A stretch of 64,000 bases of DNA from an uncultured Gemmatimonadales bacterium (GTDB lineage Bacteria > Gemmatimonadota > Gemmatimonadetes > Gemmatimonadales > GWC2-71-9), in assembly GCA_963817715.1 (NCBI GenBank), contig CAWFPG010000009.1:117574-181573 (forward strand), written 5' to 3'. Positions 5,873-62,372 of this stretch are shown piece after piece. The notes beneath the pieces are model-generated. The model was not told where the DNA came from, searched no databases, and saw only the letters and a program-made list of their open reading frames with translations. Position numbers and translations under genes: made by a program. The first letter of the stretch is position 1. Every line of letters starts with the position of its first letter.

Positions 5873-6268
5873 TTACCAGACGACGGCGAGGAGTTCGCCG
5901 CCCAGGTTGGCCGAGCGGGCCTCGCGATCGGTCATCAGCCCCTTCGGGGTCGAGACGATCGCGATGCCGAGGCCGTTCTTGACGCGCGGGATCTCGCGGC
6001 ACTTCACGTAGCGCCGCAGGCCGGGCGTCGACACCCGCTGCAGCGCGCGGATCACCGGCAGCTCGTTGTGATACTTCAGGTACAGTCGCAGCGTCCCTGC
6101 CGGGCCATCCTCGAGCACCCGGAAGTCGGCGATGTAGTGGTTGTCCCGCAGCAGCCGGGCGAACTCGGCCTTGAGCTTCGACGCGGGAATATCCACGCGC
6201 TTGTGCCCTGCCGAACAGGCGTTGCGGATGCGGGTCAGCATATCCGCGACCGGATCAGTCATGCTCAT
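5873..6268 (-). CDS. rpsH: 30S ribosomal protein S8 (uS8)
   Basis: [17 protein letters not shown]... from ATG 6268, preceded by GGAGAGA. The longer ORF start at 6358 would overlap rplE. Confidence 0.93.
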
Positions 6269-6278
6269 GCGTCTCTCC

Positions 6279-45666: not shown

Positions 45667-46815
45667 ATGCGCCATCCGGCCACCATCCTCGTCCTCGGGT
45701 TCTCCGTCGCCTGCACCGGGCCCTCGAATGCAGGCACGGGCGAGGGACGCTGGCCGGCAGTGGCTGAATGGACCATGCTGGATCTCGCCCACCCCGACAA
45801 CTACGCCCACCCCGATCTTCCGGCCCCATACCGGGACCCCGCCGTCGAGGCGATCGACAACGCCCGCAACCACCCCATCACCGACGCCGGCGCCACCCTC
45901 GGCCGGGTGCTCTTCTTCGACAGCCACCTGAGCGTCGATGACCGGACGGCCTGCGCCTCGTGTCACCTGCCGGCGTGGGGGTTCACCGACACCGCAGCCT
46001 TCAGCACCGGGCACGCCGGGGCCCGACTCACTCGCCGCACCATGCGGCTCGCCAATGCACGGTGGTACGCTGGCCCCGGCTTCTTCTGGGACCGACGCGC
46101 CCCGACGCTCGAGGCGCAGGCCACGATGCCGATCGTCCATCCCGACGAGATGGGGTGGGATGCGGATCATGGCGGGCTCGATGCCCTGGTCACGAAGCTC
46201 GCTGCCCTGCCCTACTACCCCGAGCTCTTCGCCTGGGCGTGGGGCGACCGCGAGATCACCGTTGGGCGCGTGCAGCGCTCGCTGGCGATGTACGTGCGGA
46301 GCATCGTCGCAGTGCGGAGTCGCTGGGACGCGGGCTACGCGCAGGTCTACGACCCCACCCTGCCCGATCGGGGGCTGTCGCGCGACGTGCCGGGACTCAC
46401 CACCCAGGAAAACCTCGGTCGCTCGCTCTTCATGCGGACCCACGCAGAGGGCGGCTTCGGCTGCGCCTCCTGCCACGTGCCCCCAACCTTCTCGCTCGAC
46501 GCGACGGCGAAGAGCAACGGGATCACCCAGCACGAGACGGTGGTCTTCAAGGCTCCGTCGCTCAAGAACGTGGCCCTCACCGGTCCCTACATGCACAACG
46601 GCCGCTTCCCCCGACTCGCGTTGGCAGTGGCCTTCTACGGTGGCTTCTTCAACGACGGCCCGGCGCTCGACGACCGGCTGCGGGGCCCGGGTGGCAGCCA
46701 GCTGCACACCCCGATGAGCGGCGAGCAACGCGAGGCACTCACTGCCTTCCTGCGGACCCTGACCGACACCACCCTGCGCCACGATCCGCGCTTCGACACG
46801 CCATTCCGCCGCTGA
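45667..46815 (+). CDS. di-haem cytochrome c peroxidase (CCP/MauG family)
   Basis: 382 aa from ATG 45667. MRHPATILVLGFSVACTG is a signal peptide or lipobox. Two CxxCH motifs: CASCHLP and CASCHVP. Confidence 0.85.
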   Translation: MRHPATILVLGFSVACTGPSNAGTGEGRWPAVAEWTMLDLAHPDNYAHPDLPAPYRDPAVEAIDNARNHPITDAGATLGRVLFFDSHLSVDDRTACASCHLPAWGFTDTAAFSTGHAGARLTRRTMRLANARWYAGPGFFWDRRAPTLEAQATMPIVHPDEMGWDADHGGLDALVTKLAALPYYPELFAWAWGDREITVGRVQRSLAMYVRSIVAVRSRWDAGYAQVYDPTLPDRGLSRDVPGLTTQENLGRSLFMRTHAEGGFGCASCHVPPTFSLDATAKSNGITQHETVVFKAPSLKNVALTGPYMHNGRFPRLALAVAFYGGFFNDGPALDDRLRGPGGSQLHTPMSGEQREALTAFLRTLTDTTLRHDPRFDTPFRR

Positions 46816-46824
46816 CGCGACGAC

Positions 46825-46847
46825 GCCCGGCGGGCAATCCGCCGGGC
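46825..46847. terminator. bidirectional stem-loop between convergent genes
   Basis: gcccggcgg-gcaat-ccgccgggc: a perfect 9-bp stem with no U-tract. Confidence 0.45.
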
Positions 46848-46875
46848 GCCTCGCCCTCCCGTCATCGCGCCAGGC

Positions 46876-48420
46876 TCAGTGCCAGAGCTGGAGTCCGTTG
46901 ATGTCGATGAACCGATCGTTGGGTCCGGTCACGTCGATGTACATCGTGCCGCCCGGCACCGTTCCCCAGAAGCAGGATGGTGCAGTGTCGACGTGGTCCA
47001 CCCCGAGCGAGGCGAGCGCGCCATCGCGATAGGTGAGGTCCATCGTGTGCGAGGCATCGAGGGTGGTGTTCAGTACACACACCGCCACGCCACTCACACT
47101 GTACGGCTGGCTGTTCACGCTGATCCCCAACTGGATCCGCCAGCCGGAGTTGGCACCTGACCCCAGTCGGAATGGGCTGGTGCCATAGAAGGTCTGGGCG
47201 CCGATGGTGCTCAGGTCGACGGTCCCCACCGGGGTCGCACCGTCGAGCAGCGGGCGGGTGTAGGTGCCCGCCGGCACCGCACCAGCGCTCCCCTGGAAGT
47301 TCGTGAGGTCGATGCCGACCGTTGTCGGCAGTCCACCACCGGTCGAGGTGCAGCTGAAGTCCGCACTCTCGGTGCCGCCGGGGGCGAGCGTCACCGGGAT
47401 GCTGGCGGGTGTGCAACTGAAGCCCGAGGGATCGGTGATGGTGAAGGTGTAGCTGCCGGCCGCCAGCCCGGTGACCGGCACCGGGGTGCTCCCGGCGCTC
47501 ACCATGCCGCTCGACGGACCAGTGTAGCTCACGTCAGCGGTCGCACCACTCACCGTCACGTTGACCGTGCCCGGCTGCGGGGTGCAGGCGAAGGTGACCG
47601 ACGCCGTCTGGCCGGCGCTCACCGTGGCCGACTGGGTGCTCGGACAGGTATAGCCGTCGGGCGCGGTGAGCGACAGGAGGTAGTCGCCCGGCATCACGCT
47701 CACCGTCACCGGCGTCTCGCCGGCCTGGACGCTGCCGTTCTCCGGACCGCTGTAGCCCACGGTGTGGGTCATCCCGGTGCCGGTCACCGCCACCAACAGG
47801 CCGCCCAGGTCCGACTGGCAATCGATCATCTGGGTGAAGGTGCCGCCAGCCGCCAGATCGAACGCACCATCGGTGGGCATGCAGGTGAAGCCGGTGGTGC
47901 TCCCGAGCGACCAGGTCCAGTGTCCCGGATGCACGTTCATGAAGGTCGCGCCGCTGCTGGTGAGTGATCCGTTCAGCGTGGTGCCGTCCATCAGGGAGAG
48001 CCCGAACGAGGTGCTTCCGGTGATCCCGGTCGACGTGAAGCTCACTGTCCCCGGGGTCTCCATGCACAGGAAGGCGACCTCGGCGTCGGTGTTGCTCGCG
48101 TCGTAGGAGAGATCCTGCGAAGTCTTGTCGCAGACGAAGCCCATCGGCACCGCGATCGACACGGTGTAGGTACCGCCCAGCAATGGCGCGAAGCGATACC
48201 CACTGAGGTCGACGACATGGGTTCCCAGCAGTCCCACCTCGCCGTTCAGCGTGACGGGCGCCCCGCCGGGGATACCATTGACGACGACATGGATGCCGCC
48301 GGTGAAGCCCGAGTCGGAGTAGGTGAAGAAGTCGGAGTCCTTGCGGCTGCAGGACACCGTCCCGGCCAGGAGCAGGACCCCGAGGAGGGTGCGGATCGGT
48401 CGCAGGATGAATCGTGGCAT
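46876..48420 (-). CDS. secreted/lipoprotein with tandem Cys-pair Ig-like repeats, 514 aa
   Basis: ATG 48420 (MPRFILRPIRTLLGVLLLAGTVSC). At least 4 repeats follow the pattern G.Y...(L/I)..P.G(F/Y).C......(20-22 aa)..F.C. The longer upstream part of the ORF (to 49002) overlaps the OMP gene. Confidence 0.7.
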   Translation of the reverse strand: MPRFILRPIRTLLGVLLLAGTVSCSRKDSDFFTYSDSGFTGGIHVVVNGIPGGAPVTLNGEVGLLGTHVVDLSGYRFAPLLGGTYTVSIAVPMGFVCDKTSQDLSYDASNTDAEVAFLCMETPGTVSFTSTGITGSTSFGLSLMDGTTLNGSLTSSGATFMNVHPGHWTWSLGSTTGFTCMPTDGAFDLAAGGTFTQMIDCQSDLGGLLVAVTGTGMTHTVGYSGPENGSVQAGETPVTVSVMPGDYLLSLTAPDGYTCPSTQSATVSAGQTASVTFACTPQPGTVNVTVSGATADVSYTGPSSGMVSAGSTPVPVTGLAAGSYTFTITDPSGFSCTPASIPVTLAPGGTESADFSCTSTGGGLPTTVGIDLTNFQGSAGAVPAGTYTRPLLDGATPVGTVDLSTIGAQTFYGTSPFRLGSGANSGWRIQLGISVNSQPYSVSGVAVCVLNTTLDASHTMDLTYRDGALASLGVDHVDTAPSCFWGTVPGGTMYIDVTGPNDRFIDINGLQLWH

Positions 48421-48433
48421 GATGTCTCCGCTC

Positions 48434-49417
48434 CTAGAGGGTCCGGGTGAGGCCGAAGGCGAACCAGTAGCCGGAATCGGCATCCCGCGAACTGCCCGAG
48501 TCATAGCTGGCACTGGCGCGCGCCCCCCAGTTGCCGCCGATGCGGAGGTCGAGACCACCTCCCCCGCCGAACCGGAATCCGGTCTGGTGGCGCGTGTCGA
48601 GGAGATCCTGCAACATCCGGATTTCGCTCTTGTTGAAGTACAGCGACTCGCGCAGCTGCACGTACGGCACCACCGGCCCGTCGAGCACGTCGTAGCGCAC
48701 GTAGGAGCCAACCGCATGCACCGACACATCGTGCAGGATCGACGAGCTGCCGGAGCCCTGGGTGACCGAGTAGGAGCCATGGTGATAGCCAAGGCCGAGT
48801 CGCAGTCGTGGACCGAGATGCCATTCGGCAAATGCGCCGAAGCTGGCGCCCTTGTCGTCGACCGTGCAGCCACTGAGACCGGGGATCGCCTGCCTGTCGC
48901 AGGCGACATCGCTGAGGCGGGTGAAGTTGGTCCGGCCGTACTCCACGCCGATGGTGAGCTGGGGCGCCCACCAGTTGGAGGTGGCCGCGTCAAGCATCCC
49001 ACCGGTGCTGTTGATCCCCAGGGTGGCCGTTCGACCAGCCACCACCGTGCCGAGGATCACGCAACGCTCGGTGTCCTGCTGGGTCGCCTGCCCGGGTTCC
49101 TGCCGCGACGCGTCGCACAATCGGTCCGACTCGCCATCACCCAGCAACAGGATGGTGTTGTTCCCTGTGGCGGTCTGGTGCATCGCCACCTGATACCTGG
49201 TGCCCTTCACCGCGTTGATCGCCGAGAAGTCGAGCGCCAGCGGGCGGCCAGCGGCGACGGTACCGACCGGCTGTCGGCTGCCGTTGTTCACGGTCGCCAC
49301 CGTCGCGCTGTTGACACCGCTGAGCGAGATGGTGAGGACCCGGGCCTGACCGCTGGCGGCCACCGGCACCAGGGCCAGCAGCAGGGCACCACTGGCGAGG
49401 GCTGGCAGGATGCGCAT
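48434..49417 (-). CDS. outer-membrane beta-barrel domain protein, 327 aa
   Basis: ATG 49417 (MRILPALASGALLLALVPVAASGQ, a signal peptide). The C-terminal half has alternating aromatic/Gly beta-strand pattern (..RFGGGGGLDLRIGGNWGARASASYD..GYWFAFGLTRTL). Confidence 0.65.
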   Translation of the reverse strand: MRILPALASGALLLALVPVAASGQARVLTISLSGVNSATVATVNNGSRQPVGTVAAGRPLALDFSAINAVKGTRYQVAMHQTATGNNTILLLGDGESDRLCDASRQEPGQATQQDTERCVILGTVVAGRTATLGINSTGGMLDAATSNWWAPQLTIGVEYGRTNFTRLSDVACDRQAIPGLSGCTVDDKGASFGAFAEWHLGPRLRLGLGYHHGSYSVTQGSGSSSILHDVSVHAVGSYVRYDVLDGPVVPYVQLRESLYFNKSEIRMLQDLLDTRHQTGFRFGGGGGLDLRIGGNWGARASASYDSGSSRDADSGYWFAFGLTRTL

Positions 49418-49452
49418 CGAAGACCTCCTCCCGGGCAACACGGGCCGGGAAC

Positions 49453-52400
49453 TCAAGGTTCAGGGAAGCCGGCGTCGTGCAGCACTCGCTGCACGTCGTT
49501 CCAGCGATTGGGGGCGAGCCGGCGGAGCGCCTGCTCGGTCTGGTCGGTCCACGCCTCGCCGCTCCCCTCGATGGTGCGGCGGCTGATTGTCACGAACGCG
49601 TCGCTGAATCGCTCGGCGTCGAGGCCTTCCTCGGCGGACCAGAGGGCCCACTGGCGGATCGCGTGGAAGTACTGCTCCGGGTCGCTGTCGGGATGCAGCC
49701 CGCCGGCGTCGCGCACCCGCGTGGCAGCATCGAGGATCCCGGTGTAGCGCTCGAACGGGGCGGCCACGTTGCCGCCGACGATCCGGAGCAGCGTGCCGGC
49801 GGCCGGTGGCAACCGGACCATCTCCAGGCAGTACATGTCGAGCACCAGCGGGGAGCCCCCCGCGGCCACGTAGCGCTGCAGCAGGCCGGTCACCCGTGAC
49901 TGGATCGCCGGGGTGATCGCCACCGGCTCGACCACCACGGCGTGCGTGGGCAGCCGGAGCGGCTGGCCGCTGCGGTTGATCGCGAAGAGCTGACCCACCG
50001 GTCCGGTGGAGCCGCCGGTGGCCAGGATGTAGGTCTCGATGGGCGGTCGGCCGGGACCGGCGACCTCGCTCAGCACCAGTCGCAGCGAATCGAGCAGGAT
50101 CGCCGCACTTGGGCCGGCAGGCGGCCCCGCCGCCGAGGTCGGCGCCACAGTGGCGCCGCCGAGCAGGGCGAACTGGGCCTGGCCAGCCGGATCGCGGGGG
50201 GCGGTCGCGATGTCTTCCGGCGTGGCCGGGTCGCCGAGGGCCACCTTGTCGTCCTCGCGCTTCCCGCCGCAGTCGAGCACCTCGAACGGCATCTCGACCT
50301 GCGCATGCTTGTCGCGCGGTCGTTCCTCGACCAGGAGCCGCAGCGTGTAGTGCCCCGGCTTCGGCGGGGCGTTCATGTCGCCGATCCAGATCGCGCCACT
50401 GCTGTTGCGGAAGGTGACCTCCGCGCCCGTCTCGACGATGATCCCCTTGACGTCGAGGGTGTCGCCCTCGGGATCACGGGTGATGAGGCCGGCGCGGAAG
50501 TGGTCGTTGGGGCAGAGGCCCTTGGGGGGCGCGAGGAGGATTCTTGTGGGATCGTCGGCTGCACGGACGCTGTCGGCATCGAGGAGGTAGCCGTGGCCAC
50601 CGATCACCGGTGCCTCGTTGCCGACGTGGAGCACCCCCTTGCCGATGCCCAGATGCGAGGGGTCCTTCACCTCGATCGGGATCGGGTACACGCCACCGCG
50701 CTTCTGCTGGTCGAACGGCATCGCCAGCTCGTACTCGATCCAGGCCGAGTCGTGCGCCACCTCCTTCAGGCCGCTGCCGATCCCATAGATCCCACCACCG
50801 GTCGCCGCCTGTCGCGCATCGACACTGACGGCAGTGATGTCGTGGTAGGTGTTCGCGTCGCGCACCCGGAGCCGGACCTGGATCTGCGCGTTGCCGTTCT
50901 GGTGCACGAATTCGGGCGAGACCGTCACCCGCTCCACCGTCGGGGCGACGTTCTCCACGGTGGCTTCGATGGTGCCGCTGGTCTGCCGCCCCTGATCGTC
51001 GGCCGCCCTGATGCCGACATCGAAGACACCTGAGGGGTGCGGATCGTGCACCCGTGACTGGGCGCCATCGAAGTCGAACCGCAGCATGCCGGACGCCGGA
51101 TCCCTGTCGGCAAGGCGCGCATTCGCCACGTTGCCGAAGGGCGGGGTCGAATTCAGGCCGGCGGGATGGCTCAGGGCGATCGTCTTTGGATCGACCTCGC
51201 CGGGGTTGCTGGCGTCGGCATTTCGGTCCGTCACGAACAGGCGGGCACCCCGCAGGTTGAGGACGCCACCCGGGGGGGCCGACAGCTTGTCAGGAACGGT
51301 CGCCATGAAGGTCGGTGTCACATTGAGGACCGTGACCTTGCCCCTGGCCGTGCCGGTCAGCCGGCCGGTCGAATTGTTGGTGGTGAGCACGGCGTTGAAG
51401 TCGTAGTCGCGATCGGCGCGGATCTTGGCGGCCGTGAAGTTGAACGTGGCCGTGGCGCCGGCAAGGACCGCCATCGGCTCGCCGACGCCCGCCTCCTCGA
51501 CCGGCGCCACCCCGTTGACCTTGGCGGCCTGGAGCGGGAACGGCACCTTGAGCTGGCTGAATGCCTGGGCCACCACGGCACCGGCAGCGCCGGGCTCCAC
51601 CGCCGGATTCGTCGCCGTCACGTTCGAGATCGCATCCTGCGGCGCCGGGCCGCAGGTCACGGTGAGCACACCGCGGTAGGCGCCGCCCTTGAACTCCCAC
51701 CACACGATCAGGAAGTGGGTGCAATCGTCGTTGGCGTTGTAGGCCGAGACCTGGATCGTCTGGGTGCTCGGCTGCTGCTCGACCAGGGCCTTGGTCACGT
51801 CGCCGGCGATCTGCTTGAGCAGCGGCTTGAGTGCCTGCTTGAGCCTGGGACCGCCGACGGTCTGCGCCAGCGTGCCGGCGTGCCCCTGGAGGTAGCTGAC
51901 CATGTCGGTCAGCAGCCCGTCGACAATCAACCCGGGATCGCGCCCCTCCACGTACGACTGCATCATCAGCTTCACCGCCTGCTGGGCGATCCACTTGGCA
52001 CCCTTGTCGGTGAAGTACCCCGCCGGGTTGGCATACCGCGAGATCAGGTCGGACGCGATCGCCGCCACCGTCTGCCGGAACCCGGCCAGCAACGCCTGCT
52101 GCTGGATGCCGATCGTCATGTTGCCGAAGTCACGGTAGGGCCAGCTGAACTGACTCCGCTGGCTCGCCTGGTACCGTACCTTGGCCGACGAGTAGAGCTC
52201 GGTCGCAACGTGGTAGAGGAGCGGGGTGGCGTTGCGCGACGGCTCGACCTTGAGGGTGCCCATCGGCTTGTCGCACTGACGGGCCGCGATGGACTGGGTC
52301 GGCGCCCAGTTGATCGGGTCCCAGGCTGGCCCCGAGGCCTTCCGGAAATTGACCACCGGAACCGGGCCGCTGGTGTTGACGGCGAGGCGATACGTCCCGT

Positions 52401-52539
52401 GGCCCGCCAGGATGACCCGACAGCCCGGCGCCCCCGGGGGGGAGGCGGGCGACACGATCCGCCGGGCCGGGCCGGCACCGAGGGCCAGACCGGAAAGCCC
52501 GAGCAGCGCCCCGTACCTGGCGGTGCGGCGGTGGAACAC
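49453..52539 (-). CDS. large secreted multidomain protein, 1028 aa (cadherin/Ig-like repeats, unknown N- and C-terminal domains)
   Basis: GTG 52539 (MFHRRTARYGALLGLSGLALGAG). Recurrent N(V/E)(A/T)P(T/V) repeat boundaries: VLNVTPTF, VENVAPTV, VGNEAPVI. The C-terminal domain carries YCLE...RQWALW. Confidence 0.7.
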   Translation of the reverse strand: MFHRRTARYGALLGLSGLALGAGPARRIVSPASPPGAPGCRVILAGHGTYRLAVNTSGPVPVVNFRKASGPAWDPINWAPTQSIAARQCDKPMGTLKVEPSRNATPLLYHVATELYSSAKVRYQASQRSQFSWPYRDFGNMTIGIQQQALLAGFRQTVAAIASDLISRYANPAGYFTDKGAKWIAQQAVKLMMQSYVEGRDPGLIVDGLLTDMVSYLQGHAGTLAQTVGGPRLKQALKPLLKQIAGDVTKALVEQQPSTQTIQVSAYNANDDCTHFLIVWWEFKGGAYRGVLTVTCGPAPQDAISNVTATNPAVEPGAAGAVVAQAFSQLKVPFPLQAAKVNGVAPVEEAGVGEPMAVLAGATATFNFTAAKIRADRDYDFNAVLTTNNSTGRLTGTARGKVTVLNVTPTFMATVPDKLSAPPGGVLNLRGARLFVTDRNADASNPGEVDPKTIALSHPAGLNSTPPFGNVANARLADRDPASGMLRFDFDGAQSRVHDPHPSGVFDVGIRAADDQGRQTSGTIEATVENVAPTVERVTVSPEFVHQNGNAQIQVRLRVRDANTYHDITAVSVDARQAATGGGIYGIGSGLKEVAHDSAWIEYELAMPFDQQKRGGVYPIPIEVKDPSHLGIGKGVLHVGNEAPVIGGHGYLLDADSVRAADDPTRILLAPPKGLCPNDHFRAGLITRDPEGDTLDVKGIIVETGAEVTFRNSSGAIWIGDMNAPPKPGHYTLRLLVEERPRDKHAQVEMPFEVLDCGGKREDDKVALGDPATPEDIATAPRDPAGQAQFALLGGATVAPTSAAGPPAGPSAAILLDSLRLVLSEVAGPGRPPIETYILATGGSTGPVGQLFAINRSGQPLRLPTHAVVVEPVAITPAIQSRVTGLLQRYVAAGGSPLVLDMYCLEMVRLPPAAGTLLRIVGGNVAAPFERYTGILDAATRVRDAGGLHPDSDPEQYFHAIRQWALWSAEEGLDAERFSDAFVTISRRTIEGSGEAWTDQTEQALRRLAPNRWNDVQRVLHDAGFPEP

Positions 52540-52692
52540 CGGGTCCTCCGTGGGAATCGCCCCCGAACGGGGGCCTCAGGAAGTAACGCGACAAACGACC
52601 GGCGATTCGGCCAGATCGACCGCCGGTCGGCTGGCGGGAGCCGCGGGTCGGGCTAGACTAGGAGAGGGATCCCGCTCGCCTCCGAGGAAGCC

Positions 52693-53295
52693 GTGACCGA
52701 CCCATCGACCGAACCGGCCCCACACCAGATCACCGGCCTGCTGCGCCAGGCAGCCGCCGGCCGCCGGGACGCGCTCGATGAGCTGATGCCGCTGGTGTAC
52801 GACGAGCTCTCGGGGATGGCCCGGGCCCGGCTCCGGCACGAGGCCCCCGGCCACACCCTGGAGACCGCCGGCCTGGTCCATGAGGCCTGGCTGCGGCTGA
52901 TCGACCAGCACCGGGCCAACTGGCAGGACCGCCAGCACTTCTTCGCCGTGGCCTCCGAGGCGATGCGACGCATCCTCGTCGACCACGCCAAGCGTCGTCG
53001 CGCGGCCAAGCGCGGCGGGGGAGCGGCTCACCTGCCGCTCGACGCCGCCGACCGGATTGGACGGGCGTTCGGGCCGGGCCACGATCCCGACGACACCGTG
53101 GTGGCACTCGACGATGCGCTCGACCGACTCGCCGCCTTCAATGCCGACGGTGCCCGAGTGGTGCAGTACCGCTTCTTCGCGGGTCTGTCGAATGGCGAGG
53201 TGGCCGAGTTGCTGGGGACCAGCGAGCGCACCGTGCGGAGGGCGTGGACCGCGGCGCGAGCCTGGCTCCGTCGTGAGCTCGTCACGGCGCGGTAA
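52693..53295 (+). CDS. ECF-type RNA polymerase sigma factor (kinase-associated ECF43-like group)
   Basis: 200 aa. ITGLLRQAAAGRRDALDELMPLVYDELSGMARARLRHEAPGHTLETAGLVHEAWLRL..ANWQDRQHFFAVASEAMRRILVDHAKRRRAAKRGG and the region 4 sequence ERTVRRAWTAARAWL are diagnostic of this ECF family. The stop overlaps the kinase ATG (TAATG). Confidence 0.85.
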   Translation: MTDPSTEPAPHQITGLLRQAAAGRRDALDELMPLVYDELSGMARARLRHEAPGHTLETAGLVHEAWLRLIDQHRANWQDRQHFFAVASEAMRRILVDHAKRRRAAKRGGGAAHLPLDAADRIGRAFGPGHDPDDTVVALDDALDRLAAFNADGARVVQYRFFAGLSNGEVAELLGTSERTVRRAWTAARAWLRRELVTAR

Positions 53296-55952
53296 TGGAT
53301 CAGGTGCGCTGGGCCCGGATCGAGGCGCTCTGCGAGGCGGCGCTCGAGCAGCCATCCGGCGAACGAGAGGGCTGGCTCGCCGCGGCATGCGGGGACGACG
53401 CGCTGCTGCTGGCCGAGGTCACCTCACTACTGGAGCAGCTTCGCGCCGACCCCGATTTCCTCGAGCGGCCGGCCGTCGACCTGGGCAGGGCGTCATTGGC
53501 AGCGCCCGGCGGCGGCACACTGCCGACGGCAATCGATCGGTGGCAGATCGTGCGACGGCTCGGTCGCGGCGGGATGGGCGAGGTTTTTCTCGGTGAGTGC
53601 AACGGCGACCAGGTGGCGATCAAGGTCCTGCGCGACGACATCGACTCGGCCGAGATTGTCCGGCGCTTCGCCCTTGAGCAACGGATCCTTGCCACCCTGC
53701 AGCATCCCAACATCGCCAGACTCCTGGAGGCCACGCTCACGGCCGATGGCCGGCCCTGCGTGGTCCTCGAGTACGTGGCCGGGGTGCCGATCACCGCCCA
53801 CGCCGACCTGCGCCGCCTCTCGCTGCGCGACCGCATGGCGCTCGTGATCGCGGTGTGCGGTGCGGTCGAGCACGCCCATCGCAGTCTCGTGGTCCATCGC
53901 GACATCAAGCCCGCCAACATCCTGGTGACCGACGACGGCACGCCGGTGCTGCTCGACTTCGGCATCGGGAAGGTCCTCGACCGGACCGGGATGATGGGCT
54001 CGGTGATCGAGACCAGCGGCACCGACCGCTTGCTGACCCTCGACTATGCCGCACCGGAACAGTTGCGGGGCGAGGTCGTGACCACCGCCACCGACGTGCA
54101 TGCACTTGGCGTGCTCCTGCACGAGCTGCTCACCGGGCTCCATCCCTTCCGGCACGTGGGATCGACTCCGGGCCAGGTCGAGCACGCGATTCTTGAGCAG
54201 GAGCCCGATCGACCGAGCGCGGTGGTCCGCGTGGCCCCGGCGAGCGGCCCGGTCGCCGAGGGCGACGCCCGAGCTCGCGCGGAAGCGCGCGGGTTCGGCA
54301 GCGCCGAGGCGCTCGGCCGTCGCCTCGGCGGCGACATCGACAACATCGTGCTCATGGCGCTCCGCAAGGAGCCGGAGCGACGCTATCCCTCGGTCGCGGC
54401 ACTGGCGGAAGACCTGCGCCGTCACCTCGGGGGCCGGCCGGTTCGCGCCCGGCCGGACACGCTCGGCTACCGCGCCCGCAAGTTCGTGCGCCGCAACGCC
54501 GGGTCGGTCGCAACGGCCACACTCGCGGTGCTGGCGCTGCTGGCCACCACGGGGGCGGCGCTGCGGGCATCGCGCCGTGCCACGCACAACGCCGCCGCAA
54601 CCGAGGCCGAGCGAGACGAGGCAGTTGCGGTCCGCGGTTTCCTGATGGAGATGTTCGGCGCGACGGGTGGCGGCCAGCGGGTCGGCCAGTCGGAAACGGT
54701 GCGGCAGCTGCTCGATCGCCAGGCCGCGCGCATCGACAGTGCGCACGGCGACGACCCGCTTCTGGCGGCGCGCCTCGACGAGGTCGTGGCCGACGCCTAC
54801 GACCGGCTCGGGCTCCCCGATCAGGCGGTGCCGCTCGCCGAGCGCGCACTGGCGCTGCGACGGGCGAACCAGCCGGAGAGCGATCCCCGGGTGACGGGGG
54901 CTGAGAACCTGCTCGGCTGGGTCCTGCACCAGAGCGGGCATGGCGACGAGGCCGAGTCGCACCTGCGCGTTGCCGCAACGCTCGCCCGGACCCACGGCGA
55001 TTCCGGCGCCCTGGCCCATGCACTCAACGATTTGGGGGTGCTGTACAACGCCGCGGGTCGCTATGCCGAGGCCGACTCGACCCTCACCGAGGCGCTGGCG
55101 CTGCGACGCGCCGTCGACGGCGATGGCAACCTCGGCGTGGGGATCACCGCCAACAACCTCGCGGCCGCGTTCTACTATCAGGCCAGGTACGGCGAGGCGG
55201 TTGCCACCCAGCAGGTGGCGCTCGGCGCGCTGCGTGCCAGTGTGGGGAAGGACCACCAGCGCACGGTGATCGCCCGCAGCAACCTGGCCGCGTTCCGGAT
55301 GGCCGACGGCGACTTCATCAGCGCCGAGCGCGACTACCGCGAACTGCTCGCGCAGCAGACCCGCCTGCAGGGCCCCGAGCATCCGGTCACCCGTCGGGTG
55401 GTGCTGGCGCTGACCGCTGCCCTGATCGGGCGGCAGGATGCCGGTCGGCCGGAGGCGCTCCGCGAGGCGGACTCCCTGCTCACCGCCCTGATGGCAATCG
55501 AGGAACGCACCAACGCGACACCGGCCGATCGAGGCTCCACCTTCGACCGCCTTGCCGGGGTGCGATTGGCGCGAGACGACGCCACGAGTGCCCTCGACCT
55601 CGCCCGTCGGGCGGTCGCGACGCTCACCCTGGCGCACGGCCCGCGACATCCCGACGTGGCATCGGCCAGCGGTCGACTCGCGTTGATCGAAGCACGACTC
55701 GGCGACACCCAGTCGGCCATGCGCCACGCGCGCGAGGGGCTGGCCACGCTGGTCGATCGCCTCGGCAGCGATCATCCCGAGACGGCGCGCGGACGCGGCC
55801 GGCTGTGTCGAGTCATGGTTGCGGTCGGGTCGGATTCCGCGAACGCCGCCGACACCTGTGCGGCGGCGATGGCCGGGCTCGAGAATGCGCCCGCCGGCTA
55901 TCGCGGCGAGCTGGCGGAGGTGCGGCGGGTATCAGGCCGCCGAGGGGGATGA
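53295..55952 (+). CDS. Ser/Thr protein kinase with one TM and C-terminal TPR repeats, 885 aa
   Basis: Hanks-type kinase motifs (GRGGMGEVF, VAIKVL, HRDIKPANILV, DFGIGK, APEQ), TM segment AGSVATATLAVLALLATTGAAL, then multiple TPR-like repeats. The last 8 codons lie in repeat 55927-56107. Confidence 0.9.
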   Translation: MDQVRWARIEALCEAALEQPSGEREGWLAAACGDDALLLAEVTSLLEQLRADPDFLERPAVDLGRASLAAPGGGTLPTAIDRWQIVRRLGRGGMGEVFLGECNGDQVAIKVLRDDIDSAEIVRRFALEQRILATLQHPNIARLLEATLTADGRPCVVLEYVAGVPITAHADLRRLSLRDRMALVIAVCGAVEHAHRSLVVHRDIKPANILVTDDGTPVLLDFGIGKVLDRTGMMGSVIETSGTDRLLTLDYAAPEQLRGEVVTTATDVHALGVLLHELLTGLHPFRHVGSTPGQVEHAILEQEPDRPSAVVRVAPASGPVAEGDARARAEARGFGSAEALGRRLGGDIDNIVLMALRKEPERRYPSVAALAEDLRRHLGGRPVRARPDTLGYRARKFVRRNAGSVATATLAVLALLATTGAALRASRRATHNAAATEAERDEAVAVRGFLMEMFGATGGGQRVGQSETVRQLLDRQAARIDSAHGDDPLLAARLDEVVADAYDRLGLPDQAVPLAERALALRRANQPESDPRVTGAENLLGWVLHQSGHGDEAESHLRVAATLARTHGDSGALAHALNDLGVLYNAAGRYAEADSTLTEALALRRAVDGDGNLGVGITANNLAAAFYYQARYGEAVATQQVALGALRASVGKDHQRTVIARSNLAAFRMADGDFISAERDYRELLAQQTRLQGPEHPVTRRVVLALTAALIGRQDAGRPEALREADSLLTALMAIEERTNATPADRGSTFDRLAGVRLARDDATSALDLARRAVATLTLAHGPRHPDVASASGRLALIEARLGDTQSAMRHAREGLATLVDRLGSDHPETARGRGRLCRVMVAVGSDSANAADTCAAAMAGLENAPAGYRGELAEVRRVSGRRGG

Positions 55953-56107
55953 CAGGCTGGTGAAGGGTGGAAGGGTGTCGGATCGTGCTCCCCATTCACC
56001 ATTCACGATTCAGGGTATCAGGCCGCCGAGGGGGATGACAAGCTGGTGAAGGGTGAAGGGGTGTCGGATCGTGCTCCCCATTCACCATTCACGATTCACC
56101 ATTCACC
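55927..56107. repeat. 86-bp tandem duplication, each unit containing a heptamer-arm hairpin (GGTGAAG vs ATTCACC)
   Basis: Unit 1 is 55927-56012 and unit 2 starts at 56013; the period is 86 nt with few differences. Each unit reads ggtgaag ggtg(g/a)aag gg(g)tg - tcggatcgtgc - tcccc attcacc attcacg attca(cc attcacc). Located between convergent genes. Confidence 0.9.
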
Positions 56108-56121
56108 CGCACCCACACCCC

Positions 56122-57195
56122 TCACTCCGCACCGACGACGGCGCCACGACGATGCGTGGCGTGCGCCTCCTGCAGCGCGTCGAGCAGCGGTGCGGCGTCG
56201 AATCGTACCGGGTCGGTGGCCGGCAGTCCGGTCTCCTCACTGGCCTTGCGGCACGCCTCGCGCGCCTCGTCGTCCGGGAGGTCGAAGGTGTTGAGCGCGA
56301 TGCCCACCACCTTCGAGGGATGGACCAGGTTGGCCATCGTCTCGTACAGCCGCACATACTCCGCCAGCGGCGGCAGCGCCAGCCAGCTCGCCTTGCGGTA
56401 GTCGCCGATGTACTTGCGGCTGGCCTGGTGGCAGAGGATCATCGCGTCGGGGCAGCTGCCATGCAGCAGGCCGAGGGTCACCCCGGAGTAGCCCGGATGG
56501 TTGATGCTCCCCTGCCCCTCCACCAGCACCACGTCGGCACCCTCGGCGCCCTTGCAGGTGATCACCTCGGCGGCGCCGCCGATGAAGTCGGCCACCACCG
56601 CGTCGACGCCGATGCCCCATCCCTCGACCATGATCCCGGTCTGGCCGGTGGCCACGAAGTTGGTGCGCAGGCCGCGAGCCCGGAGCCCGCGCACCAGCTG
56701 CAGCTGGGCGGTCATCTTGCCGACGTTGCAGTCGGTGCCGACCGTGAGCACCACCAGCGCGTCGAGGTCGCGCGCCTTGCCGCTGGAGACCGGCAGTCCC
56801 CGCGGCGGCCGTCGGATGTCGGTGATGGTGCGGCCGGTGCGGGTCGCGGCGGCGGCGAGATCGGGGTCGTCGCCGAGGAAGGTGTGCAGCCCCGAGACGA
56901 TGTCGCAGCCGCCTTCGAGTGACTCGAGCAGCCACGCGTGCCAGGTGTCGGGGAGGCCGCCACCCACCGGGGCGATCCCGATCAGCACCGAGTTGGCGCC
57001 AAGCGCCAGCCCCTCGGCCATGGTGGCGACGACGGGAATCCCCCCGCCGTAGCCCAGGACGTCCTGCACGGTCTTGCCGGCCTGGGTGCTGTCGAGCACC
57101 GCCACCACTGCGTCGGGCTGGTAGCGGATGACCGAGTTGGCGGTCTTGGAGAGCAGCGGCGTGAAGTCGCCGTCGGCGAGAATGAGATGGCGCAT
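56122..57195 (-). CDS. DUF1611-family protein (P-loop-like, DgcN-type putative N-acetyltransferase)
   Basis: 357 aa from ATG 57195 (MRHLILADGDFTPLLSKTANSVIRY..VLTVGTDCNVGKMT..VLVEGQGSINHPGYSGVTLGLLHG). The family assignment is from memory of conserved blocks. Confidence 0.6.
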   Translation of the reverse strand: MRHLILADGDFTPLLSKTANSVIRYQPDAVVAVLDSTQAGKTVQDVLGYGGGIPVVATMAEGLALGANSVLIGIAPVGGGLPDTWHAWLLESLEGGCDIVSGLHTFLGDDPDLAAAATRTGRTITDIRRPPRGLPVSSGKARDLDALVVLTVGTDCNVGKMTAQLQLVRGLRARGLRTNFVATGQTGIMVEGWGIGVDAVVADFIGGAAEVITCKGAEGADVVLVEGQGSINHPGYSGVTLGLLHGSCPDAMILCHQASRKYIGDYRKASWLALPPLAEYVRLYETMANLVHPSKVVGIALNTFDLPDDEAREACRKASEETGLPATDPVRFDAAPLLDALQEAHATHRRGAVVGAE

Positions 57196-57260: not shown

Positions 57261-58028
57261 TCACCCCTGGTCGTTCTCCTCGACCACTTCGGCCTCGCTC
57301 TCGTCGCCGTCCTTGGCGCCACCGATCTGCTTGGGCGGGCCCTCCTGCCCCGCACCGAGCACGCCCATCTTCTGCTTCAGCTCGAGCAGCTGCTGATCGG
57401 CGTTGCCGTGGAACTCGAGTTGCTCGAATTCGCGGCTCAGGTTGTCGCCGCTGAACTCCTCCTGCAGCTCGGCCGCGGCCAGCGCCTTGCGCTCGTTGGC
57501 CTCGATCCGCTCCTGCATCCGGTCGAACGACTCGAAGGCGCTCTTGTCGCCCATCCCCGCCAGCGTCTCCTGGATCTTCTGCTGCGCCTCGGCCCGTCGG
57601 GCCCGGGCGATGAGGATGTTCTTCTTGCGCTTCGCCTCCTCGATCTTCTCGTTGAGCTGGCGCAGCGAGTGCTTGAGCGCCTCCGTCTCCTGCTTGCTCT
57701 TGACCCATGTCTCGTGCAGCGCCTGGGCGCCCTGGAGCGCCTCGTTGTAGCGCATCAGCGCCTGCTTGGCGAGGTCGTCGCGCCCCTCCTGCACCGCCAG
57801 CATCGCCCGGCGTTCCCAGTCCTCGGCCTGCTTCTTCTGGGCCGCCGCGTCGGCCGCGAGCTTCTTCTCGTCGGCGATCGCCTGGGCGACCTGCTGGCGT
57901 GCCTTGTCGAGCTGGCTCCGCATGTCGGTGATCAGCTGCACCAGCATCTTCTCGGGATTCTCGGCCCGGGAGATGAGGTCGTTGATGTTGCTGCGCAGCA
58001 TCGTCGCGAAACGGTCAAAGATGCCCAT
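57261..58028 (-). CDS. pspA: PspA/IM30 family protein
   Basis: 255 aa: MGIFDRFATMLRSNINDLISRAENPEKMLVQLITDMRSQL, followed by a long coiled coil. Confidence 0.9.
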   Translation of the reverse strand: MGIFDRFATMLRSNINDLISRAENPEKMLVQLITDMRSQLDKARQQVAQAIADEKKLAADAAAQKKQAEDWERRAMLAVQEGRDDLAKQALMRYNEALQGAQALHETWVKSKQETEALKHSLRQLNEKIEEAKRKKNILIARARRAEAQQKIQETLAGMGDKSAFESFDRMQERIEANERKALAAAELQEEFSGDNLSREFEQLEFHGNADQQLLELKQKMGVLGAGQEGPPKQIGGAKDGDESEAEVVEENDQG

Positions 58029-58034
58029 GGTCGT

Positions 58035-58505
58035 TCACCCCTCCCCGAACGGCGCGAGGCTGCCGGCGTGTGACGCGAGTGCAAGGCTGAGCGAGTCGAC
58101 GCTCCCCTCGAACTCGGAGTAGTCCAGGTTGGCGAGTTCCAGCGTGTCCGTGAGGACCACGTGGTCGCCCTCGACGCCGTACGACCCGTGCACCAGGTCG
58201 CGGGCGTTGTATTCCAGCAGCTTGCGGCAGAGCTCTCCGGCACGCGCCGGGTCGGCGGGCAGCTGCAGGACGCGCACCCGCAGCACCAGCACTGGCGGAG
58301 CGTAGTTCACGGCCAGCTCGGCACCGTCCGCGATGCGGACCAGCCAGATGTCCTCGGCCACCGATTCGACCGGCGCTTCGAGCCGGTCGAGCCAGGCCTG
58401 CACGTCCTCGCGAGTGGTCATCGTCGCTCCTTCTGACCCGGCCCAGCCGGGTATCCATTCGGGAAACGTAGCGGCCCCCGGAAGCGGGGCCAACGACTGC
58501 GTCAT
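58035..58505 (-). CDS. YbjN / type III secretion chaperone-like domain protein
   Basis: 156 aa. ATG 58505 overlaps the upstream stop (ATGA). The alpha/beta pattern ..WLVRIADGAELAVNYAPPVLVLRVRVL..LLEYNARDLVHGSYGVEGDHVVLTDTLEL..FEGSVDSLSLAL fits the YbjN/CesT-like fold. Inferred only. Confidence 0.5.
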   Translation of the reverse strand: MTQSLAPLPGAATFPEWIPGWAGSEGATMTTREDVQAWLDRLEAPVESVAEDIWLVRIADGAELAVNYAPPVLVLRVRVLQLPADPARAGELCRKLLEYNARDLVHGSYGVEGDHVVLTDTLELANLDYSEFEGSVDSLSLALASHAGSLAPFGEG

Positions 58506-58849
58506 CGCTGTTCGGTCACCTCGTCGCGACTGGCCAGCAGCCGCTCCGCGAAGTCCTGGCGTTCCTCCAACTCCAGCACCCGGGCCCGCAGCTCATCGAG
58601 CTCGCCGTAGACCTCGGCCGACACCTCGCCGGTGCTCTCCGCCGGGTCCTGGCCGATCCTGGCGGCGAGCGCCTTGGCCACCGGGGAACGCGCCAACACG
58701 ATCACCAACACCACGGCCATCAGCCAGATGGGCACCGCGTCGTCGCCCATCGAGGCCGACGCCGCCGCCAGCGCCCCGCCGATCCCCAATCCGGCGAGCC
58801 CCAGCCCGATGAACGCCGCCGTGCGCCAGTCGTCCTTGTGCTCACTCAT
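58502..58849 (-). CDS. PspB-like small membrane protein, paralog 6 (115 aa)
   Basis: 2 TM segments (..VPIWLMAVVLVIVLA), RSPVAKALAARI, and C-terminal helix ELDELRARVLELEERQDFAERLLAS. Confidence 0.75.
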   Translation of the reverse strand: MSEHKDDWRTAAFIGLGLAGLGIGGALAAASASMGDDAVPIWLMAVVLVIVLARSPVAKALAARIGQDPAESTGEVSAEVYGELDELRARVLELEERQDFAERLLASRDEVTEQR

Positions 58850-59213
58850 GCTGTCCCCCTGACTCTATCGCGGCGGACTCCGAACGCCTCGCCAGCAATC
58901 GCTCGGCGAAATCCTGCCGTTCCTCCATCTCCAGCATCCGGGCCCGCAGATCGTCGAGCTCGGCATACACCTCTTCGGGGACATCGAGCGCGGCGTCGGA
59001 GGGCTCGGCGGCCCCGTGAAGCCGTGCGGCGATCGCCTTGCCGACCGGGCCGCGCATGATCAGGATCGCGGCGACCATCGTGACGCCCCAGATCGGGATC
59101 GCGGCGGGACCGATGATCCCGGTGACCCCGAGGAGTCCGCCCATCACCGCCATCGTTGCGATCGCGAGCCCCAGGAACATCCATCCCGTTCCGCCATCGT
59201 GTCTGGGGTTCAT
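58842..59213 (-). CDS. PspB-like small membrane protein, paralog 5 (123 aa)
   Basis: 2 TM segments (..IPIWGVTMVAAILIM), RGPVGKAIAARL, and ELDDLRARMLEMEERQDFAERLLAR. 8-nt overlap with paralog 6. Confidence 0.75.
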   Translation of the reverse strand: MNPRHDGGTGWMFLGLAIATMAVMGGLLGVTGIIGPAAIPIWGVTMVAAILIMRGPVGKAIAARLHGAAEPSDAALDVPEEVYAELDDLRARMLEMEERQDFAERLLARRSESAAIESGGQHE

Positions 59214-59575
59214 CCCTCACCCTCCTTGCCACTGCGGGAGAGGAGCCGCTCCACGAACTGGACCCGCTCCTCGAGTTCGTACATCCGGTGGTCGGCCACT
59301 TCGAACTCGCCGCTCCCGATCGCCTGTTGTTCCATCATCTCCAGTCGCGCCCGGAGATCCTCCAGCTCGACCCGGAGCTTCCTGTCACCGCCCTCCAGCC
59401 GTCGGGCGATCGCTCGTGCCAGCGGCCAGAGAATGATCACCGCACCGAGCGTCATCGCGACCACGATCAACACCATCGCCTCGGGCGGCATCGTCTCCCA
59501 TGGCGGCAGCGGTCCCGTCTGGGTCACCACCACCGGATCGGGGATGGGCGGAATGTCGGGGATCGCCTGGATCAC
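59210..59575 (-). CDS. PspB-like small membrane protein, paralog 4 (about 121 aa, Pro-rich N-terminus)
   Basis: GTG 59575 (GTGA overlap with the paralog 3 stop; an internal ATG alternative exists). TM segment AMVLIVVAMTLGAVIILWPL, ARAIARRL, ..YELEERVQFVERLLSR. Confidence 0.65.
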   Translation of the reverse strand: MIQAIPDIPPIPDPVVVTQTGPLPPWETMPPEAMVLIVVAMTLGAVIILWPLARAIARRLEGGDRKLRVELEDLRARLEMMEQQAIGSGEFEVADHRMYELEERVQFVERLLSRSGKEGEG

Positions 59576-59955
59576 GACTCCTCCGACGACCGCAACCGTC
59601 CCGGATCGGTGTGCTGGGCCAGCAACCGCTCGGTGAAGTCGAGCCGGTCCTCGATTTCCATCAGCCGCTGGGTCTCGAGCGAGATCTCCTGGAGCCGGTC
59701 CTCGACGTCGGCGAGCCGCACGCCGAGCATCGGGTCGTGCTCCCTCCCGTCCTCGAGCAGGCCGGCGATCGCCTTGCCGACGGGCCCGCGGAAGACCAGC
59801 CAGGACATCGCGATGAGTCCGATCAGACCAGCGCCCACCATCGCGTCGCCCTGACGCGAGATCTCGTCGAGCAGGACCACGAGAAAGGTCCCGGCCATCA
59901 GGATCAGCCCCAGCACCATCACCATGCCGATCACCTTCGACGTTCGAGAGGCCAT
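59572..59955 (-). CDS. PspB-like small membrane protein, paralog 3 (127 aa)
   Basis: 2 TM segments, RGPVGKAIAGLL, ..LMEIEDRLDFTERLLAQ. The start overlaps the paralog 2 stop. Confidence 0.75.
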   Translation of the reverse strand: MASRTSKVIGMVMVLGLILMAGTFLVVLLDEISRQGDAMVGAGLIGLIAMSWLVFRGPVGKAIAGLLEDGREHDPMLGVRLADVEDRLQEISLETQRLMEIEDRLDFTERLLAQHTDPGRLRSSEES

Positions 59956-60230
59956 CAGGTCGTCTCTCCATGCTGGTGGGTGGGCGCATCCGCACGCTGG
60001 GCCAACAGCCGCTCGCTGAAGTCGAGCCGCTCGTGCACCTCGCTCAACTGCTCGTGCACATGGTCGAGCTCGGCGCGCAGGGCATCGACCTCGGCCAGCA
60101 GCCGCGGATCGGCCTCGCCACCGCGACCCGCGATCCGATCGGCCAGCGCCAGCCCGACCGGGCTCTTCACGAGGATCGCCGAGACCGGCACCAGGAACGC
60201 CATGGCCATGATGATGAGGGCGAAGCTCAT
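59955..60230 (-). CDS. PspB-like small membrane protein, paralog 2 (91 aa)
   Basis: MSFALIIMAMAFLVPVSAILV (TM), KSPVGLALADRI, ..LSEVHERLDFSERLLAQ. Confidence 0.75.
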   Translation of the reverse strand: MSFALIIMAMAFLVPVSAILVKSPVGLALADRIAGRGGEADPRLLAEVDALRAELDHVHEQLSEVHERLDFSERLLAQRADAPTHQHGETT

Positions 60231-60231
60231 C

Positions 60232-60501
60232 TCAGCCCTCTCCCTCGGATGGTCGGGCCGGCGGTGCCTCGCTGCCACGCGCCAGCAGCCGCTCGGCAAA
60301 GTCGAGCCGCTCGTGTATCTCACTCACCTCGACCCGTAGCCGGTCGACCTCATCGTACAGCCCCTCATCGATCTCGGGCGCCGGCAACGGCTGCTTGCCG
60401 TGCCGAAGCCGCTCGGCGAGCGCCTTCCCCAGCGGCGAGAACGACAGCATGACCAGGGTGCCCCCACCGAAGAGGAGGATGATGGCAAGGATGTCTTCCA
60501 G
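60232..60501 (-). CDS. PspB-like small membrane protein, paralog 1 (about 89 aa if CTG start)
   Basis: The ATG ORF 60232..60450 lacks the TM. The same frame is open upstream through LEDILAIILLFGGGTLV, with CTG 60501 placed 6 nt after AGGAGG (60508-60513). SPLGKALAERL, ..VSEIHERLDFAERLLAR. Confidence 0.55.
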   Translation of the reverse strand: MEDILAIILLFGGGTLVMLSFSPLGKALAERLRHGKQPLPAPEIDEGLYDEVDRLRVEVSEIHERLDFAERLLARGSEAPPARPSEGEG

Positions 60502-62124: not shown

Positions 62125-62340
62125 TCAGACCAGTTCCGCCGTCGTGATCGCGCCGAGCGAGATGGCAATCTCGGTCTCGTCGTCACCCGATGGCTTGAGG
62201 AAGACCTCATGGGCGGTGGGATGCAGGTCGACGCTGGTGGGCAGGCCGAGCACCTCGGTGCCGTCCTCCAGCACCAGACGCACCGCGCGGTCGTTGCCGC
62301 TGGCAAATCCCAGGATCTCGATCATGGCGTCGAATTGCAT
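62125..62340 (-). CDS. hypothetical small protein (71 aa)
   Basis: ATG 62340 (MQFDAMIEILGFASGNDRAVRLVLEDGTEV...). The stop lies 2 nt before the sdaAB start. Coding-like composition; no family recognised. Confidence 0.5.
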   Translation of the reverse strand: MQFDAMIEILGFASGNDRAVRLVLEDGTEVLGLPTSVDLHPTAHEVFLKPSGDDETEIAISLGAITTAELV

Positions 62341-62372
62341 CGGGGCCTCCTGACCGCGGATACCCATGGAAT

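Follow-up and report, generated by a model that had tools for sequence, protein, structure and literature searches.

A putative kinase-controlled ECF43-like sigma factor and the candidate promoter of a divergent surface-protein operon in Gemmatimonadales

A 64,000-nt stretch of DNA from an uncultured Gemmatimonadales bacterium (contig CAWFPG010000009.1), here called the window, contains the genes for an extracytoplasmic function (ECF) sigma factor and a Hanks-type Ser/Thr kinase, divergent from three genes that encode cell-surface proteins. We consider it probable that these five genes form an envelope-response module, in which an ECF43-like sigma factor under the control of the kinase directs transcription of the divergent surface operon. 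The sigma-kinase operon would be transcribed from a housekeeping-type promoter of its own, with a TAGACT -10 box. The kinase is predicted to cross the membrane once, with its N-terminal extension and catalytic domain in the cytoplasm and its tetratricopeptide repeat (TPR) region beyond the transmembrane (TM) segment, and would control how active the sigma factor is, most probably through phosphorylation, by analogy with EcfP/PknT and EcfK/PknS. The sigma factor would direct RNA polymerase to the sequence TGGCCG-N17-CGCGT, 46 nt upstream of the divergent operon. The output would be a large secreted protein with immunoglobulin (Ig)/cadherin-like repeats, a small outer-membrane protein (OMP) of the beta-barrel type and an Ig-repeat lipoprotein.

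An initial annotation of this DNA had proposed the same chain from kinase to sigma factor to divergent cluster, set off by an envelope or extracellular cue. The type of sigma factor, its coupling to the kinase, the module and the presence of a promoter are borne out here; the promoter sequence it put forward, and a motif common to both transcription units, are not.

The five-gene locus and its candidate promoters

The window is 68–71% G+C, and its nearest database relatives are Gemmatimonadales metagenome-assembled genomes (MAGs). It also contains rpoB/rpoC-sized genes and ribosomal-protein operons. The features of the locus, in which the three surface proteins are called the cargo, are as follows.

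52693..53295, plus strand: ECF sigma factor gene, 200 aa, GTG start (PF07638/TIGR02999 match)
53295..55952, plus strand: Hanks-type Ser/Thr kinase gene, 885 aa (Pkinase and TPR_12/TPR_10 matches, Hanks motifs)
49453..52539, minus strand: first cargo gene, 1028 aa, GTG start after GGAGGA (open reading frame (ORF), AlphaFold2 (AF2) model, Foldseek)
48434..49417, minus strand: second cargo gene, 327 aa, probable OMP beta-barrel, ATG at 49417 and stop at 48434 (OMP_b-brl match below threshold)
46876..48420, minus strand: third cargo gene, 514-aa Ig-repeat lipoprotein, ATG at 48420 and stop at 46876 (weak PEGA/SdrD_B matches, lipobox-like Cys)
52586..52613, minus strand: candidate cargo-operon promoter TGGCCG-N17-CGCGT (conserved in orthologous loci, enriched)
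52631..52659, plus strand: candidate sigma-70-like promoter of the sigma-kinase operon (TAGACT conserved in orthologous loci)
46824..46848, no strand assigned: GC-rich hairpin with a 10-bp perfect stem and a 5-nt loop (read from the sequence)

The TAA stop of the sigma gene and the ATG of the kinase gene have one base in common (TAATG; read ...cggTAATGgat). A spacer of 153 nt (52540-52692) lies between the sigma gene and the minus-strand cluster, in which the intergenic gaps are 35 nt and then 13 nt and a Shine-Dalgarno-like sequence precedes each gene. Gene coordinates, TAATG overlap, spacer and gaps had all been given in the initial annotation and are present in the sequence; its account of the locus is confirmed in almost every detail. 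The arrangement is a conserved one. The sigma gene is divergent from a relative of the 1028-aa gene in 13 of 13 distinct loci (L001-L003, L005-L007, L010-L012, L014, L015/L020, L021 and the window), and the kinase gene is present wherever the contig reaches. L004, L008, L009 and L013 are further contigs with the same protein as L003 or L007.

The candidate promoter of the cargo operon lies in the divergent spacer. When the spacers of nine distinct loci were aligned, two blocks were conserved and the remaining sequence was free. In the window, on the minus strand, these are TGGCCG (52613-52608) and, after 17 nt, CGCGT (52590-52586), which ends 46 nt before the GTG of the 1028-aa gene. The orthologous loci keep both blocks and the distance between them, but not the identity of the 17 bases in between; the spacing is N18 in L001, L012, L014 and L021, and L006 and L010 have one-base variants. 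The end of the -10 block lies 38–46 nt before the start codon in most loci. The consensus of 18 sites is TGGCCG-g-n-T-y-g-G ... w-w-T-n-T-CGCGT-w.

The motif is specific. Its single exact match in the whole 64-kb window, rpoBC and the ribosomal-protein operons included, is the cargo promoter site, and orthologous loci with N17 spacing likewise have one exact match each, in the spacer. Is it associated with the sigma factor or only with this cargo? Loci were collected by sigma homology from GTDB species representatives and by way of two sigma homologues about 66% identical. The set for the enrichment analysis, 14 Gemmatimonadota loci chosen by sigma homology alone (sigma factor at least 57% identical; 141.6 kb), has 8 exact matches against 0.59 expected, or about 14-fold more, the expectation coming from 300 first-order Markov simulations, in which the maximum was 4. 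In seven cases out of the eight the match is in intergenic DNA adjoining the sigma gene, and L021 adds an N18 version. In the seven loci with a readable downstream ORF, the first ORF begins 34–76 nt past the motif and encodes a protein with a signal peptide or lipobox. The cargo that the motif precedes is not the same in each locus:

L022, sigma factor 78% identical: OMP and lipoprotein homologues only
L024 and L017, sigma factors 65–66% identical: Big_1 lipoproteins, the L017 cargo being co-directional with and upstream of the sigma gene
L029 and L032, sigma factors 58–62% identical: OMP_b-brl proteins, followed by proteins of 560–750 aa
L033, sigma factor 59% identical: a small secreted protein and a CarboxypepD_reg/SdrD_B repeat protein

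The motif thus goes with this sigma subfamily whatever the cargo. We infer that it is the cognate promoter of the subfamily, and that the sigma factor of the window reads it; the enrichment beside varied cargo is the strongest evidence. Its recurrent output would appear to be an outer-membrane barrel together with an Ig-repeat (lipo)protein.

A promoter before the divergent cluster had been predicted, and a conserved motif not of the sigma-70 type is indeed found there, recurring beside related sigma-kinase pairs. The sequence proposed for it, GAATC-N15-CGTTA, does exist at 52608-52584 on the minus strand and overlaps the -10 element, but its -35 is misplaced: GAATC falls in the variable spacer, and only the CGT of CGTTA is on the conserved block. 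A sigma-54 promoter (TGGCAC-N5-TTGC, with GG and GC 10 nt apart) was also considered and rejected. The bases 10–13 nt past TGG are unconserved among the 18 sites, and the second conserved block sits 17 nt beyond the hexamer. Strict consensus promoter scans called neither the cargo promoter nor the sigma promoter, and one-mismatch searches for the motif in loci without an exact match gave mostly noise.

The sigma strand carries a different pattern. In the window this is CTGGCG (52631-52636), 17 nt and TAGACT (52654-52659), with the -10 ending 33 nt before the GTG. Across loci it reads sTGGCG-N17-TAGACT, and the end of the -10 lies 28–40 nt before the sigma start except in L011. The box is TACAAT in L006 and TAAGCT or TATGCT in related pairs; TAGACT keeps T1, A2 and T6 of the housekeeping -10 hexamer. 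A motif shared by the cargo and sigma units, or an autoregulatory one, was not found upstream of the sigma gene in the orthologous loci. The single promoter type expected of both units is therefore replaced by two, as different motifs are conserved on the two strands, and in the divergent arrangement the sigma operon looks constitutive and not autoregulated. The block at 52651-52661 is near-palindromic (CTAGACTAG on one strand, CTAGTCTAG on the other). We read it as the -10 hexamer (TAGACT; TACAAT in L006); alternatively, it may be an operator for a dimeric regulator.

Two hairpins border the cargo operon. A GC-rich one follows its promoter at 52561-52574 on the minus strand, with counterparts of differing sequence in L001, L002, L005, L007, L020 and L021. 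As a conserved hairpin of the 5' untranslated region it was rejected, its stability being like that of shuffled sequence (z -2.3 to +1.3). The other, at 46824-46848, had been noted as a stem-loop (46825-46847) at the end of the cluster and is a perfect 10-bp hairpin, CGCCCGGCGG-gcaat-CCGCCGGGCG. It sits where the lipoprotein gene and a CCP_MauG gene converge, between their stop codons. A T tract is lacking, and a consensus terminator scan makes no call there. It is likely to be a bidirectional terminator or a 3'-end stabiliser. No match to a known RNA family in Rfam was found across 46000-56500 at E up to 1.

Two other observations concern sigma-kinase genes. In L018 a paralogous pair is adjoined by intergenic arrays of inverted short repeats (CTCTCACCTCTTACCT and its complement; 6138-6379 and 8863-9242) that lie between genes for MacB-type ABC transporters. 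In the window a second Hanks-type kinase gene (62125-63999, minus strand) leaves the end of the stretch; its Pkinase match begins at profile position 97, so its N-terminus is beyond 64000.

Conservation of the module and nature of the cargo

Full-length relatives of the 1028-aa protein are few. A word-indexed search of 5.8 billion proteins found 10; about a dozen full-length clusters came out of an exhaustive profile search among 1.8 billion representatives. Two large proteins, from the contig of the window itself and from L015, escaped the word-indexed search, although it found both sigma factors (P0011, 100% identical, and P0012, 83%). The exhaustive search did recover the large protein of L015 (P0132). 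The family size from the word-indexed search is therefore an underestimate. The 1028-aa profile gave no hit in GTDB representative genomes. Identities of the module orthologues to the window proteins are as follows.

Sigma factor: 62–85%
Kinase: 54–71%
Large protein: 42–55% (36% over the truncated L021 fragment)
OMP: 32–42%
Lipoprotein: 34–57%

The regulators are better conserved than the cargo. The window, L001 and L015 are syntenic on both sides, over at least 20 kb, with CCP_MauG, PhoD and a CarboxypepD_reg protein on one side and DUF1611, PspA, CesT_Tir_1 and serine dehydratase on the other. This indicates that the module is a stable chromosomal feature and not an island. L003 and L007 have other flanks on the cargo side, without CCP_MauG and PhoD, so the five genes have been held together through some rearrangement.

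The five genes are not inseparable. An uncultured Gemmatimonadaceae MAG (L022, 3317-5919) has a pair with a sigma factor 78% and a kinase 67% identical to those of the window, and the same promoter precedes only OMP and lipoprotein homologues; this locus lacks the 1028-aa gene. The large protein is thus dispensable. Co-occurrence of the five genes, which had been suggested as a check on the model, holds in every relative that has the 1028-aa protein but is broken by this pair.

On the kinase side, a run of genes recurs in three genomes (window 57261-60323, minus strand; L001 1431-4678; L015 15252-18740). It contains PspA/IM30, a CesT_Tir_1-like chaperone and six or seven small ORFs (85–128 aa) with no Pfam match.

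What does the operon encode? The cargo had been described as without recognisable function, and the 1028-aa protein indeed has no Pfam, NCBIfam, PADLOC, PDB sequence or plasmid match. Its N-terminus is signal-peptide-like and is followed by a nearly invariant Cys. The AF2 model (mean pLDDT 64) has a low-confidence helical region at about residues 100–255 and a confident array of Ig/cadherin-like beta-sandwiches at about 300–755. Foldseek matches are to generic cadherin, S-layer, contactin, Ig and complement C3 arrays only. One relative of the Ig region bears a Peptidase_S8 domain.

The last 195 or so residues (about 834–1028; window 49456-50040, minus strand) form a C-terminal domain, alpha/beta plus four helices in the AF2 model of the whole protein. 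A separate model of it (pLDDT 75, pTM 0.68) has no PDB fold match at E below 0.4. This domain is modular and widespread and has no Pfam match in any of nine sampled members. In the exhaustive profile search (profile positions 830–1026) it was found in more than 400 clusters at 50% identity with E < 1e-30, at the C-terminus of proteins 180–1800 aa long; the word-indexed search with it gave only 12 short unnamed proteins. ETYxLATGGSTGPV and YCLE..R.PP..GT are among the conserved motifs of the domain.

In the second protein, of 327 aa, a signal peptide is followed by an N-terminal domain of some 130 aa and, at the C-terminus, by what is probably an OMP beta-barrel. Its match to PF13505 (OMP_b-brl; E 4e-5, 24.3 bits) is under the 28.7-bit gathering cut-off. 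The precomputed Pfam record gives OMP_b-brl for most orthologues, L001 not being among them, and a signal peptide is present in all OMP orthologues read. The third protein, of 514 aa, has Ig-like repeats (PEGA/SdrD_B/CarboxypepD_reg-like, the PEGA and SdrD_B matches being weak). After its signal peptide is a lipobox-like ...TVSC, and 10 further Cys bring the total to 11. The lipobox-like Cys is kept in 8 of 8 lipoprotein orthologues and the count of 11 in 7 of 8 (10 in L001), which fits the original description of a Cys-pair Ig-repeat lipoprotein. The three cargo proteins may form a complex at the outer membrane or cell surface.

The same set may occur under other regulators. Protein P0172 (1471 aa; JGI sample 3300067032, 130-kb contig) bears the same C-terminal domain, and downstream of it are an OMP_b-brl gene (334 aa) and then a CarboxypepD_reg/SdrD_B gene (580 aa), in the order seen in the window. 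Two GerE regulators are nearby and no sigma-kinase pair. This one example suggests a wider three-gene cassette with interchangeable regulators. More tentatively, a large variable protein, a small barrel and an Ig-repeat (lipo)protein might constitute an undescribed cassette for surface display or anchoring, in which the C-terminal domain docks passengers on the barrel-lipoprotein pair, and Gemmatimonadales might have multiplied sigma-kinase modules sharing one motif to deploy such sets. We put this forward as a speculation that is rather unlikely to hold.

The sigma factor, the kinase and the activating switch

On its profile matches the sigma factor is of the ECF43-like, kinase-linked type, as the initial annotation had it. 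It matches PF07638 at 186.8 bits (cut-off 21.1) over 182 of 185 profile positions and TIGR02999 (Sig-70_X6) at 200.2 bits (cut-off 126.15). There is no anti-sigma gene at the locus, and a domain scan found no anti-sigma domain in the products of the neighbouring genes or in the kinase itself. Instead, as in ECF43, a kinase gene is adjacent, its start overlapping the sigma stop, and the pair is kept in all orthologous loci.

The kinase begins with an N-terminal extension of some 80 aa, followed by a kinase domain (residues 80–380), one TM segment and a C-terminal TPR region (431–885). Its Pkinase match covers residues 84–290 (129 bits), and TPR_12 (112 bits) and TPR_10 match between residues of about 490 and 730. 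All of the catalytic motifs are present: GRGGMGEV, VAIK, HRDIKPAN, DFG and APE. The only hydrophobicity peak is at about 403–425 (nt 54501-54569), in keeping with the single TM segment described beside the Hanks-type and TPR domains at the outset. The extension carries a motif, RWxR[IV]ExLC...C..D..L..[ED]V..LL..L..DP.FLE, common to paralogous kinases. An extension, a complete Hanks domain, a single TM segment and repeats predicted to be extracytoplasmic make the protein PknS/PknT-like. PADLOC matches of the kinase to PD-T4-6 and mad6 were rejected as signs of a defence system, being generic kinase-domain matches.

ECF43 sigma factors have uncharged residues in place of the DAED motif of region 2.2 (STTA in EcfP, QATE in EcfK, consensus QTTA), and phosphorylation of the Thr at position 3 restores binding to the beta' subunit (PMC8999054, PMC8103513, PMC13147305). 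Activation that depends on phosphorylation has been shown experimentally for EcfP and EcfK (PMC8999054, PMC13147305). We took the replacement of DAED by uncharged residues with a phospho-acceptor Thr at position 3 as a mark of the group; the Thr is conserved in 88% of members. The window sigma factor has E57-T58-A59-G60 (encoded at 52861-52872; context HTL-ETAG-LVHEAW), with the Thr one position earlier and an acidic residue at position 1, and would belong to the minority of ECF43 without the canonical Thr. Aligning the ETAG region with QTTA, NTTA, STTA and QATA sequences requires no indel. The module orthologues have [E/D]-T-[A/G/S]-[A/G], in which T58 is invariant and position 1 acidic throughout. 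Among 120 close sigma homologues x-T-T-A dominates (NTTA 35, STTA 8, DTTA 7). The ETAG, ETAA, DTAA, DTGA, ETGA and ETSA forms cover every module orthologue and others besides, such as the L017 paralogue (DTAA).

Several points weigh against control of this promoter by a kinase-activated sigma factor. Ala takes the place of the residue that is phosphorylated in EcfP and EcfK, and the module orthologues have A, G or S there (Ser in one). The orthologues retain an acidic residue at position 1 of the region 2.2 motif, and their sigma2-sigma4 linker shows no evident conserved Ser or Thr. It could be, then, that the sigma factor depends less on phosphorylation or is phosphorylated elsewhere. The link between sigma factor and promoter is one of association, and no ECF43 target-promoter consensus for comparison was found in accessible papers or supplements. 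Further, sigma factors about 60–66% identical adjoin the same motif, which leaves the specificity of paralogues within one genome unexplained.

Is the switch then a different one? The module and promoter could be the same and the sigma factor competent without phosphorylation in region 2.2, the kinase acting otherwise: T58 or another site might be phosphorylated, the N-terminal extension might hold the sigma factor as an anti-sigma factor would, or the kinase might mainly target other proteins. The [E/D]-T-[A/G/S]-[A/G] motif of the module orthologues, set against the NTTA, STTA, DTTA or QTTA of most close homologues, and the acidic residue kept at position 1 speak for such a switch. So does EcfK, in which T51A is still functional and a second site in the linker suffices (PMC13147305). 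The extension motif, conserved among paralogous kinases, is a further point in its favour. However, the invariant T58 adjoins the canonical site, the domain scan detected no anti-sigma domain in the kinase, and the kinase retains the full set of catalytic motifs, its translation being coupled to that of the sigma factor in all loci. We regard a switch of this kind as unlikely, if clearly worth considering. Activation by phosphorylation at the canonical site of region 2.2 is unsupported by the sequence, and the phospho-switch may differ. Control of the sigma factor by the kinase is kept as the best reading because the kinase is intact and strictly coupled to it; the kinase would activate the sigma factor in response to the signal it senses, with T58 a possible phospho-acceptor.

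Very improbable, in our view, is that TGGCCG-N17-CGCGT is read by another sigma factor or regulator and that the pair controls genes elsewhere, its adjacency being inherited synteny. The window, L001 and L015 are syntenic over at least 20 kb, which makes co-occurrence among close relatives weak evidence by itself, and several related sigma factors share the motif. Yet the motif accompanies the pair into unrelated contexts and cargo (L017, L022, L024, L029, L032, L033), whether the arrangement is divergent or co-directional. Loci picked by sigma homology only are enriched in it about 14-fold; it is absent from the window's housekeeping operons and does not fit the sigma-54 layout, the -12 bases being unconserved.

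Known systems and the meaning of the locus

The closest described system is EcfK/PknS of Xanthomonas citri, in which an ECF43 sigma factor and a TM Hanks-type kinase activate a type VI secretion system against amoeba predation (PMC13147305). PknS has an 83-aa extension, a kinase domain, a TM segment and periplasmic TPRs (PMC13147305). The window pair resembles it in having an ECF sigma factor without an anti-sigma factor, an adjacent kinase with an extension of about 80 aa, a Hanks domain, one TM segment and TPRs, and one acidic residue in the four-residue region 2.2 motif (QATE; ETAG in the window). It differs in its cargo, a three-gene envelope operon and not a type VI secretion system, and in having its Thr at position 2 of ETAG where EcfK has T51 at position 3 of QATE. 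The linker of EcfK has T106, whereas no linker Ser or Thr conserved across the window orthologues is evident. The window system is also from Gemmatimonadota and is known from sequence alone.

In EcfP/PknT of Vibrio parahaemolyticus the second Thr of STTA is phosphorylated, which leads to beta' binding and polymyxin resistance (PMC8999054, PMC8103513). EcfP is of the same sigma family and is inactive or weak until the adjacent kinase acts (PMC8999054, PMC8103513). Unlike the window protein, which has Glu at position 1 and Ala at position 3, it has no acidic residue in the motif and its Thr is at position 3. The sensor domains of the kinases and the regulons also differ.

A looser parallel exists in the Bacteroidota, where ECF sigma/anti-sigma pairs occur in multiplied paralogous modules beside SusC/SusD-like pairs of an OMP and a lipoprotein, which they presumably control. 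The likeness lies in a dedicated ECF sigma factor beside an outer-membrane barrel and a surface lipoprotein. In contrast, the regulator in the window is a Ser/Thr kinase and not an anti-sigma factor, the barrel is a small OMP_b-brl protein and not a TonB-dependent transporter, and there are no glycan-utilisation genes.

To our knowledge, kinase-linked ECF sigma factors have been studied in few proteobacteria only (Vibrio, Xanthomonas and one Hyphomonas example), and we know of almost no genetics in Gemmatimonadota. The regulatory type, an ECF43-like sigma factor with a Hanks-type kinase, is a known one. The promoter motif, the Gemmatimonadales five-gene module, the non-canonical region 2.2 and the uncharacterised envelope cargo are new.

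The locus gives a concrete, testable promoter for a Gemmatimonadales sigma subfamily and a defined set of envelope proteins as the likely output of a kinase-linked sigma factor in Gemmatimonadota. As a natural variant without the canonical phospho-Thr, the sigma factor is useful for asking how general the charge switch in region 2.2 is. The cargo points to a widespread domain without a match in Pfam and to a barrel and an Ig-repeat lipoprotein that recur as a pair, and, if the cassette reading is true, it may be the more novel part of the locus.

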